In this document: positions 17,263 to 25,734 of the stretch, one piece after another
How the letters are laid out: each line of letters begins with the position of its first letter
How positions within the stretch are numbered: position 1 is the first letter of the stretch
NCBI GenBank assembly: GCA_028699255.1
Contig: JAQVUX010000007.1
Location: 24,670 to 88,669 of the forward strand
DNA length: 64,000 nt
Reading direction: 5' to 3'
Source: Candidatus Omnitrophota bacterium
GTDB lineage: Bacteria; Omnitrophota; Gorgyraeia; 2-01-FULL-45-10
The notes under the pieces: generated by a model
What the model was told of the DNA's origin: nothing
The model's database searches: none
What the model saw: the letters and a program-made list of their open reading frames with translations, nothing else
Position numbers and translations under genes: made by a program

Positions 17263-17291
17263 ATTTTAAAACGGTGGGCGGGTTAAGTCAA
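17263..17291 (-). promoter_or_regulatory. candidate sigma70 promoter of the hydrogenase operon
   Basis: Minus strand TTGACT-17nt-TAAAAT about 20 nt upstream of the AsrA-like start. Confidence 0.4.
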
Positions 17292-18052
17292 TCTAATTTT
17301 AGTCTCTTGCCGTCTTTATCGAATATGCGGAACTTGCTGAGCCTATTCTTCTGAAGCATATACTGTACAGCCGTATTGAGCACACCCAGCCCGTACACAA
17401 CGCTTCTGCGGAAATTTATGGAGGATGATTCTTTCGTATACTGGCTGGGGCATGTTATCTCTCCCACCCTGTAACCGAAATAAAACGCCTGCGCCAATAT
17501 CTGGTTATCGAATATAAAATCGTCCGAATTTTCCAATAGCGGCAGATTCAGAAGAACCTCTCTCGAGAAAGCCCTGTAACCTGTGTGGTACTCGGAGAGT
17601 TTCTCGCCTATCATATTATTCTCTAAGAGTGTCAGCACCCTGTTCGAGATATATTTATACAGCGGCATTCCACCCCTTAACGCCTTATTGCCGAGTATCC
17701 TCGATCCCGTTACAACGTCAAACATTCCGGATGTTATCAATCCTGCCATCGGCGTTATAAGACTCGGAGGATACTGGTAATCGGGGTGAAGCATGATCAC
17801 CACATCCGCACCGAACTTCAGCGCCTCGCGGTAACAGGTTTTCTGGTTCCCGCCATAACCTAAATTCTTGTCATGGATGAACGTTTTTATCTTCAGTCTT
17901 CCGGCGACCTCGACGGTCTTATCGCCCGAGTTGTCGTCCGTAAGGATAATGTCATCCACCACGTCCTTAGGGATATCGTTATAGGTCTTCTCGAGGGTCT
18001 TCTCCGCGTTATACGCCGGCATCACCACGACGATTCTTTTACCGTTCAGCAT
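17288..18052 (-). CDS. family 2 glycosyltransferase
   Basis: 254 aa; 'VVMPAYNAE...DDNSGD' GT-A DxD region. Confidence 0.75.
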
Positions 18053-18980
18053 TTTGCCCTTTTCGGTATATGCTCTTCACAATATATTTAGGCCTCTGTT
18101 TAACTTCTTCGAATATTTTGCCGATATATTGACCTAGGATACTCAGCGAAAGCAGTTGCACCGCTCCCACAAATAATACCACTACCAAAATAGTTGTAAC
18201 CCCATGCGGTGTGCTGGGCGTAAGTATCCTGATAATTATTTGCGCAATCATTCCAAATATTGCTACAAGGAATATTATGAATGAAAATAGCGTTATTATT
18301 TCTAGCGGAACATACGAGAACGAAAAAATTCCTTTTGTGGCCCAATTAAAGTTTTTCAGGAAATTGTTTGTAGTTTTACCGAACATCCTTTCCGCTCGTA
18401 CATACGAAACTCCCACCTGTCTGAAGCCTACCCAGGCGCGTAATCCTCTCAAAAATCTATCGCGCTCCGGGAGCTTCTTCATATGCTCGGCAACCTTCTT
18501 GTCTATCAATGAGAAATCGCCGGCGTCCAGAGGTATTTTTACATACGACAACGCGTGAAATATTCTGTAAAATATCTTGTACGCTATCTGCATTAAAAAG
18601 GGGGCTTCTCTCTTCGCGCGCACACCGTAAACAACATCATATCCTTCCAGCCACTTTTTATACAGCGCCTCTATGAGTTCCGGCGGGTCCTGTAGGTCTC
18701 CGTCAAGAAGCACGACGGCATCACCGTTTGCTATATCCATACCGCTTGTAAATGCCATTTGTGAACTGAAGTTGCGGGAATGATTTACGACAACGATATG
18801 GGTATCTTTTTCGGCAAGTTCCGATAAAATCGCTTCTGTATTATCCGGACTGCCGTCATTTACAAATATAATCTCGTACTCAACCTGTATCTTATTAAAA
18901 ATATCCGTCAGACGTTTATACATATGCGGGATTGCCTGCTCATCCTTATAACATGCTATGATCGCGGATATCTTCTTCAT
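18039..18980 (-). CDS. polyprenyl-phosphate sugar synthase-type GT2 (GtrB/ArnC/DPM1-like) with C-terminal TM helices
   Basis: 313 aa; 'FVNDGSPD', 'DGDLQDPPE' and two C-terminal TM helices. Confidence 0.7.
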
Positions 18981-18991
18981 AATGCCTTTCT

Positions 18992-19495
18992 CTATTTTTT
19001 AAGATTGATGTAATATGGCGCATCGTTTGTTATCATTTCGTCTATAAGCCCGGGCATCTCTTCATTAGCCTTCGGCCATCGCGCGCGTATGTTTGAGAAT
19101 ATGCCCATTACCGCCTTGTCCTCTTCAGCCCAATGCGAAAAGCCGTCGTGAACATAGTCCTTGCCCCTCCCGGCCCCTATCAATTTAACGGGTATTTTTT
19201 CATTATTGATATAGTTTCGAATAGTTTCAAACGGCCTGTATAACAGAAAAGGCGTTATCGAATAAACGAACGGTATCTTGCCTTCCAGAGCCAACCCTAC
19301 ACCGATGCCAGCCATAGATTGTTCCGCAGCGCCCGTGTTTATGAATCTATCCGGGTAATCCAGCATTACCTTATCCCACATCTTATAGCCCAGGTCGCCC
19401 ACAACAACCCATATTTTTTTATTATATCTCATGCGGTCATGCAGAACGTCAGCAAAAACTCTTCGCATTTTTATATCTGACACTTTCTGTCTCAT
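18992..19495 (-). CDS. transketolase, C-terminal section (split transketolase)
   Basis: 167 aa; Pyr/C-terminal domain; paired with the N-terminal subunit upstream. Confidence 0.65.
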   Translation of the reverse strand: MRQKVSDIKMRRVFADVLHDRMRYNKKIWVVVGDLGYKMWDKVMLDYPDRFINTGAAEQSMAGIGVGLALEGKIPFVYSITPFLLYRPFETIRNYINNEKIPVKLIGAGRGKDYVHDGFSHWAEEDKAVMGIFSNIRARWPKANEEMPGLIDEMITNDAPYYINLKK

Positions 19496-23837: not shown

Positions 23838-23841
23838 AAAA

Positions 23842-25284
23842 CTACCCCTTCACCTCTTTGGGCTTTTCCCCACTCCATGTGTTAAGCGCTATGTAATGCC
23901 ACTCAAGCCCTGCGATCTTGGGCTTGCTGTCGGGAGATCCCCTTACGATGAGCCGGTCTTCGGGCCTCATCTTATTTACCCACGGCTCGTAATCTTCAGG
24001 ACGGTTAAAATTCTTTTGGATATTCCTGAGTATCTTCAAGTCTTCGGGAGGCATAAGAGCCGATTCAAATCCGAGCATATAACGCCAACCGGCCTTGGGA
24101 TTTTTATAAAACGTCTGATAAAAAACCCCCATATCGTCACTATATATAATACCTCCGGGCTTCGGTAAAAACTCTGCCTGCTTAGGATCTTCGCTCGAGA
24201 TGTAATCCATAGGCCTCGACAAACTCCAGCGGCTCCCGGCGTCGACTGTAAAAGTCACATAAAATATCGCCGCCGATAATATTGCTATCTTGAGCCGCCG
24301 CCATGAAAGCGGATCGATATTATCCGTCAAAAATTGCTCAAACTCTAACGCTAGCCATATCGCAAACGCGGCCATACCCCAATCCAACCATATCCTCCTC
24401 GTAAAAAAACCTAAGATAAAACTCAACACAGCTAATATAAAGATCGGGTTATCTATACTGCTTCTAATTTCTTTCTTTCTCAGAGCTCTCCATCCCAATA
24501 CCGCCGCGGCGGTCAGGATTATAATATAATTTCCTATTACCGGCCTTAATTCTCCGACCAGCTGACGCTCCACATCATGGTCACCATAGACAAGGAAGAA
24601 GTGGGTAACCATCTGCTTTATAAAAATAACGGGATGCCCTGTAAATGTAGCTCCGAGAAATATGCCTATTACCGAAGATAAAGCGATAAGTGTAGCGGCA
24701 CGCCATTGATGGGCGAGTAAAAACGTAAGGACGATGATACCAAAAAAGTACCAGCTTGCATGTATCCATACCGACAGCGCGGCTATAATGGTTATAATTA
24801 TAAGATTGCTGAGCTGATACCTTTTATCGTTTAACCGGGGCCATATAAGCAGTATTATAATAAGAGATGCCATCGTAAATATATATGGTCGACCCAAAAA
24901 TAGTCGCATTATCCATCCGGGGTCTATCAGCGATATCGTAAAAATCGAAAGGAGCCAGGATTCGGGGAATTTGAGAAAAAATACAGGTATAATGCAAAAC
25001 AAAATAAATAGGGATATTACGGAAAATAGTACAAGGCTATGCTGATCCCAGCCCGTTATCTCATGAACAGACCTTAGAATAAAATGCCAGCCCGGATAAC
25101 TATCCATCTTTATATCATCCCGGAGAACAAGTATCTGGCTCCAATCTTTTCCGGAAATGATCTTGGCGCTATGTCTCATAGCGTCATCTGGCGGCATAAA
25201 ACCGTAACCTACTACCTGGAAAGATATTAAGACGATAATCCAGACTGCAACGAGAATAACCGTTATTGGCAATATATTTCTCAT
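23842..25284 (-). CDS. polytopic membrane protein with C-terminal periplasmic domain; paralog of 47952..49412 (candidate pilin-modifying enzyme)
   Basis: 480 aa; conserved N-terminal loop 'GFMPPDDAMRHSAKIISGK'; immediately downstream of a pilin gene. Confidence 0.5.
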   Translation of the reverse strand: MRNILPITVILVAVWIIVLISFQVVGYGFMPPDDAMRHSAKIISGKDWSQILVLRDDIKMDSYPGWHFILRSVHEITGWDQHSLVLFSVISLFILFCIIPVFFLKFPESWLLSIFTISLIDPGWIMRLFLGRPYIFTMASLIIILLIWPRLNDKRYQLSNLIIITIIAALSVWIHASWYFFGIIVLTFLLAHQWRAATLIALSSVIGIFLGATFTGHPVIFIKQMVTHFFLVYGDHDVERQLVGELRPVIGNYIIILTAAAVLGWRALRKKEIRSSIDNPIFILAVLSFILGFFTRRIWLDWGMAAFAIWLALEFEQFLTDNIDPLSWRRLKIAILSAAIFYVTFTVDAGSRWSLSRPMDYISSEDPKQAEFLPKPGGIIYSDDMGVFYQTFYKNPKAGWRYMLGFESALMPPEDLKILRNIQKNFNRPEDYEPWVNKMRPEDRLIVRGSPDSKPKIAGLEWHYIALNTWSGEKPKEVKG

Positions 25285-25368
25285 ATATTATATACAATAA
25301 CATACAAAAACAAGGAGAGGCAAGTAAAACTTGCCTCTCCTTAAAGAATTATAAATAAAATTATTCTT

Positions 25369-25734
25369 TTATGGATTATCTATCGTACCAGTTAAAAGAT
25401 TCATATTAACAGCTAACGCAGCGGTAGCGTTAGATGCGCTAATGGTATTGGTAGCCGAAGAAATAGTGTAATTAGAACCGGAATAATATGTACCATTCAA
25501 ATCGCCGGTAGTTATATAGCTTGACATATTGGCTAAACCAGCCGGCCAAGCAGTATTTTCAGCATAATACAACCGTGCGGCTGTTCTTATAGCGCCCATC
25601 GCCGCTATGGCTTCCGATCTCTTCGCCCTATTCACATTAACACTCATCATCGGAGCGGCTATCGCGGCCAATATACCAATAATTATAATTACTATAATAA
25701 GTTCAATTAACGTAAAGCCCTTTCTGTTTCTCAT
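25369..25734 (-). CDS. type IV pilin / pseudopilin-like protein
   Basis: 121 aa; 'MRNRKGFTLIELIIVIIIIG' prepilin leader with G/F cleavage site and E+5; Ser/Thr-rich C-terminus. Confidence 0.8.
   Translation of the reverse strand: MRNRKGFTLIELIIVIIIIGILAAIAAPMMSVNVNRAKRSEAIAAMGAIRTAARLYYAENTAWPAGLANMSSYITTGDLNGTYYSGSNYTISSATNTISASNATAALAVNMNLLTGTIDNP

Follow-up and report, generated by a model that had tools for sequence, protein, structure and literature searches.

A type IV pilus unit joined to a candidate GT-C-based pilin glycosylation system in Candidatus Omnitrophota

The window analyzed here, 64,000 nucleotides of contig JAQVUX010000007.1 from a Candidatus Omnitrophota bacterium, carries at about 17288..28800 a type IV pilus unit that is, in our moderately confident assessment, joined to a periplasmic pilin glycosylation system working by GT-C logic. 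Gene content and order, the GT-C folds of the models of two large membrane proteins (480 and 563 aa) encoded behind the pilin, conserved acidic motifs in the first loop of both, and a recurrent linkage with pilins were observed directly. A preliminary description of the stretch had proposed a candidate pilin glycosylation system; comparative genomics strengthened this proposal for the first of its two pilin cassettes, while the class of the membrane enzyme had been misjudged, the second cassette turned out weaker, and the suggested C-methylated sugar found no support.

Organization of the pilus unit

All genes of the unit lie on the minus strand, with the transcription order pilB-pilC-pilin-480aa-563aa-SDR-MTase-split TK-GT2-GT2, where SDR denotes a short-chain dehydrogenase/reductase, MTase a methyltransferase, and TK a transketolase-like enzyme. 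The first gene encodes a PilB-type assembly ATPase of 586 aa (27040..28800; Pfam T2SSE, 8e-140, and N-terminal MshEN, 2.5e-14), followed by a PilC-type platform protein of 407 aa (25820..27043; Pfam T2SSF in two stretches, 1.8e-54) and by the 121-aa pilin 1, the proposed acceptor (25369..25734; Pfam N_methyl, 1.5e-10; partial NCBIfam matches to PilA_Myxo and GspG). The pilC and pilB genes, directly upstream of pilin 1 at 25820..28800, were missing from the gene list of the preliminary description, every open reading frame (ORF) of which was recovered in place on the minus strand.

Behind pilin 1 follow the gene for the 480-aa membrane enzyme, here called PolyA and proposed as the pilin glycosyltransferase (23842..25284), and the gene for the 563-aa protein, proposed as a second periplasmic glycosyltransferase (22146..23837). 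From 25284 down to 17288, the intergenic gaps measured -14 to 56 bp throughout. The flanks consist of hydrogenase-maturation, iron-sulfur or flavin oxidoreductase genes, and the unit was therefore taken to span about 17288..28800.

GT-C fold and conserved motif of the 480-aa protein

The AlphaFold (AF2) model of the 480-aa protein (pLDDT, 91.2; pTM, 0.90) was searched against the PDB with Foldseek, and ranks 1 to 18 were all GT-C enzymes, namely, STT3 of the yeast and human oligosaccharyltransferase (OST), ArnT, AftA, PglB, ALG9, and AglB, the top matches having a probability of 1.00, E values of 1.3e-5 to 8e-4, and TMq of 0.44 to 0.57. PimE, AftB, ALG3, and AftD came next; ranks 1 to 25 were solely GT-C, and unrelated channels appeared afterwards at E > 0.1. 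The earlier assignment of the protein to TfpO/PglL/Wzy_C-like enzymes gives way to a GT-C fold, so that the right analogy is pilA-tfpW and not pilA-tfpO. The GT-C class also implies a stepwise transfer from polyprenyl-phosphate monosaccharides instead of an en bloc transfer of an O-antigen unit, and both GT-C enzymes of the unit may use a polyprenyl-phosphate-linked sugar as donor, for which the two synthase-like GT2s of the same operon are an indirect indication.

In the 32-sequence family alignment, residues P31, D33, D34, H38, K41, and K46 were invariant just past the first transmembrane helix. PPDDA occupies residues 30 to 35 of the window protein, the family form of the motif is PPDDA..H..K..K, the DD pair was kept in essentially all of the 94 family members taken from loci, and further extracytoplasmic loop residues were invariant as well. 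The LPPDDA-RHSAK-ISGK loop pointed out in the preliminary description is real and family-wide in this alignment of homologs. Judging from the AF2 helices and the charges of the short loops, the protein probably has 11 transmembrane helices with the N terminus inside, which would make loop 1 and the C-terminal domain periplasmic, on the same side as the globular domains of prepilins. In the model, the C-terminal domain comprises about 130 aa of alpha/beta structure with mixed helix and strand.

No Pfam, NCBIfam, or PDB sequence match to the 480-aa family was obtained, singly or as a profile, even at E <= 1 or 10, and no TPR family match was found in any of the 32 members at E <= 1. The motif YX6PFX7P occurred in 0 and YX6PX5P in 1 of the 94 members in a regular-expression search, the window protein having neither. 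Profile alignment by hhalign gave a probability of 3% against PMT_2/TPR GT-C enzymes and 0.9% against the 563-aa family, neither being significant; the sole alignment with the latter family sets DD opposite its DE. By these comparisons, the 480-aa family appears as a separate GT-C family with no detected sequence relation to the PMT_2 or 563-aa families. An exhaustive hidden Markov model search collected 612 representatives (50% identity) at E <= 1e-3, including 317 at E <= 1e-30.

Recurrent linkage of the 480-aa family with pilins

One genome per species was scanned, and 80 of the 179 loci of the 480-aa family were kept with ±10 kb, originating from Omnitrophota, Syntrophaceae/Smithella, Scalindua, Elusimicrobia, Lentisphaerae, and many Verrucomicrobiota. 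A pilin-like ORF lay at most 600 bp from 14 of 90 family genes, the two of the window counted. Within the 80 loci, 11 of the 23 pilin-like ORFs were situated within 600 bp of a family gene, compared to 13.8% expected under uniform placement (binomial P ~1e-4), a statistic that is inflated by the relatedness of the loci. The adjacent pilins, seen in Omnitrophota, Syntrophia-type, and Verrucomicrobiota loci, belonged to three different types and were located on either side of the family gene and in either relative orientation, which indicates that the association arose or was kept repeatedly.

Among close orthologs of the 480-aa protein, a pilin was encoded directly upstream in 8/8 contigs examined (the window, L001/L099, L002, L087, L089, L165, L166, and the P0014 contig). 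The pair pilB-pilC preceded the pilin in six of these; the recovered stretch of L089 reaches only pilC and that of L087 neither gene. In the window, 84 bp separate pilin 1 from the 480-aa gene, the same order was present in the seven other contigs, and a 563-aa family gene was found within about 5 kb of the 480-aa ortholog in 6/8. Reciprocally, 18 of the 25 pilin 1 homologs whose contigs measured 4 kb or more co-occurred with a 480-aa family match, the same contig being assumed where both contigs were equal in size; of three inspected among the remaining seven, two stood at a contig end and one had no family member nearby. The adjacency of family and pilin genes was above chance. In a neighbor-joining tree, the pilin signal was uneven across clades, with a large Verrucomicrobiota clade almost never beside a pilin and usually followed by an RmlD-like reductase gene.

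In a Smithella metagenome-assembled genome (MAG), a 480-aa family gene (L012:5472-7217) is followed by a pilin gene and, two genes on, by a PMT_2+TPR protein of TfpW-like architecture, showing that both kinds of GT-C enzymes can sit at one pilin.

Pilin 1 and its predicted expression signals

Pilin 1 starts with the short basic leader MRNRKG, followed by FTLIE (MRNRKG↓FTLIELIIVIIIIGILAAIA), and both pilin 1 and pilin 2 of the second cassette have the features of a type IV pilin with a class III signal peptide, that is, a basic leader, a cleavage/methylation motif, and a hydrophobic alpha1-N helix. Pilin 1 has zero cysteines, and Ser, Thr, and Asn are abundant in its C-terminal half. The family of about 120 aa that is always encoded upstream of the 480-aa orthologs shares the motifs DL[NT]G.YY and Y-x-[IVT]-[ST], and the Ser/Thr of the latter was kept in 12/12 aligned orthologous pilins. 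N-x-S/T sequons are present four times in pilin 1 and twice in pilin 2, and the sequon site varies among orthologous pilins (NYT, NYS, AYS, SYA, and NYA).

The 85-bp gap ahead of the pilin 1 gene contains, in a consensus scan, a match to a sigma-70-like promoter (TTTGCA, 18 nt, TG TATACT; 25762..25791, minus strand), to be read as a pattern match only, and a strong putative AAAGGAGGA ribosome-binding site was read at about 25741..25750 (minus strand). Directly 3' of the pilin 1 stop codon, the terminator scan and the sequence itself revealed a hairpin with a near-perfect 15-bp stem (7 GC), a 3-nt loop, and a T-run (25311..25343, minus strand), by far the strongest terminator-like site in the 12.6 kb scanned; it has the appearance of an intrinsic terminator or attenuator. 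This predicted layout of promoter, ribosome-binding site, and hairpin is the one expected for a highly expressed major pilin with the genes behind it weakly read through or separately transcribed, and it suggests an attenuated read-through from pilin 1 into the glycosylation genes. The 480-aa gene has a TATAAT-like box of its own just ahead of its ATG.

Upstream of the 480-aa orthologs in L001/L099, L002, L165, and L166, the pilin gene is tandemly duplicated, the copies differing mainly in leader length or in the last few residues. In the pilin at L099:8080-8472, Ala and not Gly precedes the cleavage site (RRA↓FTLIE).

The 563-aa family

The AF2 model of the 563-aa protein (pLDDT, 92.8; pTM, 0.92) had ArnT, STT3, ALG9, and ALG12 on top of its Foldseek matches with E values of 2e-6 to 8e-4, and ranks 1 to 27 were solely GT-C. 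Aligned by hhalign with PMT_2 proteins of related loci, the family reached a probability of 98.0% and E 1.7e-13 over 193 columns, spanning helix 1 to about helix 6 and placing WNDESE opposite the loop-1 DE motif of PMT_2; W40, D42, and E43 were invariant among its 28 sequences. These fold and profile matches bear out the preliminary reading as an ArnT/PMT-like GT-C enzyme with a WNDESE loop. None of the 28 members matched Pfam at E <= 1, the threshold of PF13231 was not reached, and no NCBIfam or PDB sequence match was obtained with the protein or the profile. Taken together, the sequence comparisons describe the 563-aa protein as a divergent relative of PMT_2/ArnT and not as a member of the Pfam family. 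Weak SecY matches of the profile at E ~0.02 were taken as noise.

The window protein is 100% identical to a protein from a Candidatus Omnitrophica MAG, and the family ranges over Omnitrophota, WOR-1, Patescibacteria, and Bacteroidota-like MAGs. Orthologs of the Dpm1-like GT2 of the unit (>=100 bits) were found in 22/79 loci of the 563-aa family versus 4/80 of the 480-aa family, and methyltransferases of the Methyltransf_23 type adjoin, or stand one gene from, 563-aa family genes in several loci. Its wide occurrence with a GT2, with and without a pilin, makes the 563-aa gene plus GT2 look like a portable two-part module that was recruited here beside a pilin-specific enzyme.

Pilus genes also surround members of this family elsewhere. 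In WOR-1, the 563-aa gene lies beside pilB, pilC, a pilin, and YfhO, another GT-C enzyme. In another Omnitrophica, a run of two pilins, PMT_2+TPR, PMT_2, radical S-adenosylmethionine (SAM) enzyme, methyltransferase, 563-aa, and further PMT_2 genes stands upstream of pilM and pilO. In the WOR-1 loci L081/L082:11654-14035, a 793-aa YfhO-family GT-C enzyme is encoded directly behind the pilin of a unit formed by pilB, histidine kinase, pilC, and pilin genes, and a 563-aa family gene, a methyltransferase, and GT2s adjoin it; a different GT-C family thus holds the position after the pilin in another phylum.

Sugar-donor genes

The assignments of both GT2s, the split transketolase, the SDR, and the pilin in the preliminary description were backed by Pfam and NCBIfam. 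The last two genes of the unit encode the GT2s. The 313-aa GT2 with C-terminal membrane helices (18039..18980, minus strand) matched NCBIfam PgfS (242 bits, 8.9e-72) and ArnC (162 bits, 1.2e-47) over its full length, both below the equivalog cut-offs, and is predicted to be a polyprenyl-phosphate sugar synthase of the GtrB/ArnC/PgfS type. The soluble 254-aa GT2 (17288..18052, minus strand; Pfam GT2) was hit by the NCBIfam models for AglJ, PpgS, and dolichyl-P-hexose transferase at ~1e-14, far below cut-off. Judging from its Dpm1/PpgS/AglJ-like sequence, this GT2 probably acts as another polyprenyl-phosphate sugar synthase, one that usually accompanies the 563-aa family.

The gene behind the 563-aa protein encodes an extended SDR most like UDP-hexose or UDP-uronate 4-epimerases (21192..22139, minus strand; Pfam Epimerase, 1e-46), with UDP-glucose 4-epimerase 4zrm, MoeE5, and 6zl6, deposited as 'Epimerase domain-containing protein', as the closest solved structures. 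It is followed by a class I SAM methyltransferase of 306 aa with an N-terminal CxxC segment (20215..21135, minus strand; Pfam Methyltransf_23, 3.7e-17). In Pfam, the C-methyltransferase domains PF08421/PF08484 had no match in this protein; the earlier label of a Zn-ribbon C-methyltransferase-like enzyme, and with it the C-methylated sugar, could not be upheld for what is a generic Methyltransf_23 enzyme. True sugar C-methyltransferases with PF08421 plus PF08484 were present in two sister loci of the 480-aa orthogroup, at L165:10051-11307 and L166:8919-10172. The split, shortened transketolase-like enzyme, dependent on thiamine diphosphate (ThDP) and encoded at 18992..20205, consists of a PP half of 237 aa (19492..20205, minus strand; Pfam Transketolase_N) and a Pyr half of 167 aa (18992..19495, minus strand; Pfam Transket_pyr). 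The Transketolase_C domain was not found in it, the closest solved structure is the split-chain transketolase 6yak, and the same cluster position is occupied by a split transketolase in L001/L099 and L087. A literature search for transketolase in GT-C clusters found nothing useful.

Behind the pilin-480aa pair, the window, L001, and L087 carry SDR, methyltransferase, split transketolase, and GT2 genes, L165 and L166 a sugar C-methyltransferase, epimerases, and a GT2-methyltransferase fusion, and the P0014 contig two B12-binding radical SAM enzymes. Variable sugar genes behind a constant pilin-GT-C pair are the pattern expected of a surface-glycan diversification island. GT2-methyltransferase fusions also adjoin the 480-aa orthologs in L002 and L003, with no 563-aa gene in the recovered stretch.

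At L099:12602-14473, in the most closely related Omnitrophota locus, a gene inserted between those for the SDR and the methyltransferase encodes a 623-aa protein predicted to cross the membrane about 11 times; this protein had no Pfam match and could be a third GT-C enzyme or the flippase missing from the window cluster. An Arn-type lipid A modification, raised by the ArnC-like GT2, was rejected since aminotransferase, formyltransferase, and deformylase were all absent from the cluster.

The second cassette

The 486-aa paralog of the 480-aa enzyme, here called PolyB (47952..49412, minus strand), is 53% identical to it over 474 residues in BLASTP, and counting on the same alignment gave ~67% identity for the C-terminal domain, close to the 60 to 65% reported before. 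Its neighbor pilin 2 (47527..47955, minus strand; 142 aa from ATG 47955; N_methyl, 2e-7) is 49% identical to pilin 1 and has the N terminus MINEKG↓FTMIELL. The start of pilin 2 overlaps the TGA stop of polyB (ATGA), so the pilin follows the membrane protein and the gene order described for the first cassette is reversed; its own stop overlaps the start of an Lgt-like gene (TAATG).

The preliminary description had counted two pilin-linked copies of the enzyme. This held for the first copy, linked in the eight ortholog contigs, and was weakened by the orthologs of the second, which in five other Omnitrophota loci (L004 to L008) had no pilin-like ORF anywhere in the locus. In at least four of these five loci, purB is located directly downstream of the 486-aa ortholog. 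Because the 486-aa orthologs lack a pilin and have purB directly downstream, the block 44908..47955, with pilin 2 and Lgt-like, HgdD-like, and BadF-like genes, looks like an insertion particular to the source genome. The same enzyme is present a second time as the conserved 486-aa paralog, whose usual target is not encoded beside it.

The Lgt-family prolipoprotein diacylglyceryl transferase paralog (46778..47527, minus strand; Pfam LGT, 7e-41) is translationally coupled to pilin 2 and is followed by an HgdD/DUF2229-like gene (45852..46781, minus strand) and a BadF/BcrA-type ATPase gene (44908..45855, minus strand). This four-gene block lies between the 486-aa GT-C gene and purB and is missing from at least 4/5 orthologous loci. 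Divergent from the 486-aa GT-C gene, the region 49472..52134 (plus strand) encodes a saccharopine-dehydrogenase-like protein (505 aa) and an Orn/DAP/Arg decarboxylase-like protein (391 aa), whose genes share 31 bp; the pair recurs divergent from orthologs of this GT-C gene in other Omnitrophota loci and probably represents a polyamine pathway.

Proposed mechanism and comparison with known systems

In the proposed pathway, the epimerase-like SDR, the shortened ThDP enzyme, and the SAM methyltransferase would tailor nucleotide sugars in the cytoplasm, the GtrB/ArnC/PgfS-like and the Dpm1/PpgS-like GT2s would load sugars onto polyprenyl phosphate, and the lipid-linked monosaccharides would be flipped to the periplasmic face. 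There, the 480-aa GT-C enzyme would attach a sugar to the globular part that the membrane-anchored pilin exposes in the periplasm, most likely at Ser/Thr, and the 563-aa GT-C enzyme would add a further sugar or use a second site. The hairpin at 25311..25343 would allow more pilin than enzyme to be produced. We infer the pilin as acceptor, the O-linkage, the order of transfer, the identities of the sugars, and the pairing of each GT2 with each GT-C enzyme.

The closest functional analog is TfpW of Pseudomonas aeruginosa group IV (Pa5196/PA7), a GT-C enzyme of the pilA-tfpW(-tfpX) arrangement that serves pilin D-arabinofuranosylation; it has DDx in periplasmic loop 1, is encoded directly behind pilA, moves sugar to pilin Ser/Thr on the periplasmic face, and is clustered with donor genes in P. 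indica and Kingella denitrificans (10.1101/2020.04.19.049825). The 480-aa protein shares with it the GT-C class, the DD in the first periplasmic loop, and the gene position directly downstream of the major pilin. In contrast to TfpW, it lacks the C-terminal TPR domain, in place of which it has the alpha/beta domain of about 130 aa, and the proline-rich motif YX6PFX7P (Emb-like YX6PX5P). The TfpW donors come from the PRPP/DprE1/DprE2 arabinose pathway, whereas the 480-aa cluster has GT2s plus the SDR, transketolase, and methyltransferase; no UbiA or FAD-oxidase family genes for a D-arabinofuranose donor were found in it. A second GT-C gene in the same operon and the different phylum set the two systems further apart. 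On present evidence, the 480-aa enzyme would work like TfpW and appears not to belong to the TfpW family, from which it is separated by motifs, domains, and the PMT_2/TPR profile used as a proxy.

The three-component systems (Gtr O-antigen glucosylation, ArnC/ArnT, CsbB/YfhO, and GT136 pentofuranose [PMC11127046]) combine a polyprenyl-phosphate sugar synthase of the GtrB/ArnC/CsbB type with a flippase and a GT-C transferase, and likewise have a GT-C enzyme use a lipid-monophosphate sugar extracytoplasmically. They differ from the window cluster in having a flippase, for which no GtrA, MATE, or ArnE/F-type gene is present here, and in acting on a glycan or teichoic acid where the window acceptor is probably a pilin; the window also has two synthase-like GT2s and two GT-C enzymes. 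Its PgfS-like GT2, epimerase-like SDR, and two polytopic proteins recall another such system, the Streptococcus mutans protein-glycosylation operon pgfS-pgfM1-pgfE-pgfM2 (Pgf). The 563-aa protein resembles the PMT_2/ArnT GT-C enzymes (PF13231; GT39, GT83-like) in fold and loop-1 acidic motif but is too divergent for the Pfam model and has a conserved C-terminal domain of its own with NYEE and P.I.R motifs. With the Wzy_C enzymes TfpO/PilO, PglL, PglS, and TfpM, the 480-aa protein has in common the adjacency to a pilin, the expected O-glycosylated pilin, and possibly phage shielding, whereas fold and mechanism class differ, the 480-aa protein being a GT-C enzyme. The cyanobacterial pilin glycosyltransferase Ogt belongs to GT41 and not to GT-C.

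Alternative explanations

The most serious competitor of pilin glycosylation, which we rate as unlikely without dismissing it, is that the GT-C enzymes and donor genes serve to modify a non-protein glycan of the envelope, for example, lipid A/lipopolysaccharide core, peptidoglycan, or exopolysaccharide, as ArnT, Gtr, or YfhO do, and that surface-gene clustering brought them close to pilus genes. Several observations weigh against pilin glycosylation, and part of them speaks for this competitor directly. About 75 of the 90 480-aa family genes, among them the polyB orthogroup and almost every Verrucomicrobiota copy, do not lie beside a pilin, so the acceptor of the family at large may be a different or a wider one, and the commonest neighbor of the family, present in 24 loci, is the RmlD-like reductase (confirmed by Pfam in the L052 example). 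Likewise, pilin-like ORFs were present in only 10/79 loci of the 563-aa family, and the 563-aa gene with its GT2 was found with no pilin nearby in a Komeilibacteria locus of the candidate phyla radiation, where a methyltransferase completes the module, and on a 4.5-Mb contig. Most of the three-component GT-C systems known so far act on glycans (PMC11127046). The cluster itself encodes no flippase, the strong terminator-like hairpin divides pilin 1 from the enzyme genes, and the 563-aa module of L087 and L089 runs convergently to pilin-polyA, from which it follows that co-transcription is not required. All family sources are metagenome assemblies, and the relatedness of the loci has to be kept in mind with the adjacency statistic. 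A glycan target is opposed by the pilin directly beside the enzyme in every ortholog contig, the reciprocal co-occurrence of at least 18/25, the recurrence of the adjacency with three pilin types and both gene orders, and the absence of Arn-type aminotransferase/formyltransferase, O-antigen, and Wzx/Wzy genes from the cluster.

Other explanations concern the 480-aa enzyme alone. That it acts as an N-oligosaccharyltransferase-like analog of STT3/AglB/PglB on Asn-X-Ser/Thr of the pilin, like AglB on archaeal pilins, is improbable. STT3 subunits head the Foldseek list, PglB and AglB are also on it, and both pilins of the window contain sequons; ArnT, AftA, and ALG9, however, score equally to STT3, and the C-terminal domain has only about 130 aa. 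The nearby GT2s resemble polyprenyl-monophosphate sugar synthases and not a diphosphate-oligosaccharide pathway. O-linkage to the pilin appears more likely than N-linkage because the sequons are unconserved, the Ser/Thr two residues further on, in Y-x-[IVT]-[ST], is kept in all aligned pilins, and no WWDYG-like motif is among the invariant columns of the family alignment. Still less credit is given to a catalytically inactive accessory or assembly factor of the pilus with a retained GT-C-like fold. Non-enzymatic accessory genes of the TfpX/Y/Z class do follow pilins in other bacteria (PMC11841053), but the loop-1 DD and the nearby basic residues are invariant across phyla together with other extracytoplasmic loop residues, and sugar-donor genes are consistently close by. 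Least probable of all is the TfpO/PglL-type (Wzy_C) O-oligosaccharyltransferase with en bloc transfer of a preassembled glycan, an idea suggested by the large polytopic protein directly behind the pilin gene, as in pilA-tfpO of P. aeruginosa 1244. No PF04932 match was found in any of the 32 family members at E <= 1, the fold is GT-C with no WaaL, O-antigen-ligase, or Wzy_C-type chain among the 50 best Foldseek matches, and the cluster contains no initiating phosphoglycosyltransferase, Wzx, or Leloir-type assembly set.

Implications

Pilin glycosylation by the unit at 17288..28800 is a prediction that extends a known theme and overturns nothing. In the literature found, TfpW of Pseudomonas is the only pilin-linked GT-C enzyme described, and the literature searched contained no prior description of the 480-aa or 563-aa families or of pilin glycosylation in Omnitrophota. 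The locus suggests that the TfpW strategy is used in Omnitrophota with unrelated GT-C families, and clusters of multiple GT-C enzymes beside pilins are suggested in WOR-1 and Syntrophia-type lineages. Two sizeable families of hypothetical proteins would gain a testable predicted function and might provide new enzyme scaffolds for glycoengineering, with donor needs that look simple, namely, a lipid-monophosphate sugar. Variable pilus glycans would be a likely site of contact with hosts or phages in bacteria whose life is thought to be spent attached to other cells.

A wider proposal is put forward tentatively and with considerable doubt. The 480- and 486-aa proteins might constitute a new family of GT-C glycosyltransferases acting on proteins (pilins), with about 600 clusters at 50% identity, no Pfam match, and no relative of solved structure that sequence searches detect, distributed over Omnitrophota, Syntrophia-type bacteria, Verrucomicrobiota, and further phyla. 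In this scenario, the copy linked to the pilin and its exchangeable sugar-tailoring islands (ThDP-dependent, C-methylating, and radical-SAM) would diversify the pilus glycan coat in ultra-small host-associated bacteria, and the unlinked syntenic copy would serve as a general glycosyltransferase for the numerous prepilin-like proteins that these phyla possess.

Other genes in the window

Behind the gene for a C-5 cytosine DNA methylase (60391..61515, minus strand) lies one for a 323-aa protein that had no Pfam match, the two together covering 59423..61515 and possibly forming a restriction-modification pair. A stand-alone protein of the PD-(D/E)XK endonuclease family is encoded at 52423..52860 (minus strand). 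Two tandem prepilin-type genes with N_methyl matches (62483..62950 and 63015..63476, minus strand; 155 and 153 aa) are situated beside a PAS-domain protein (61867..62439); they have no adjacent GT-C gene and could encode further substrates or minor pilins.

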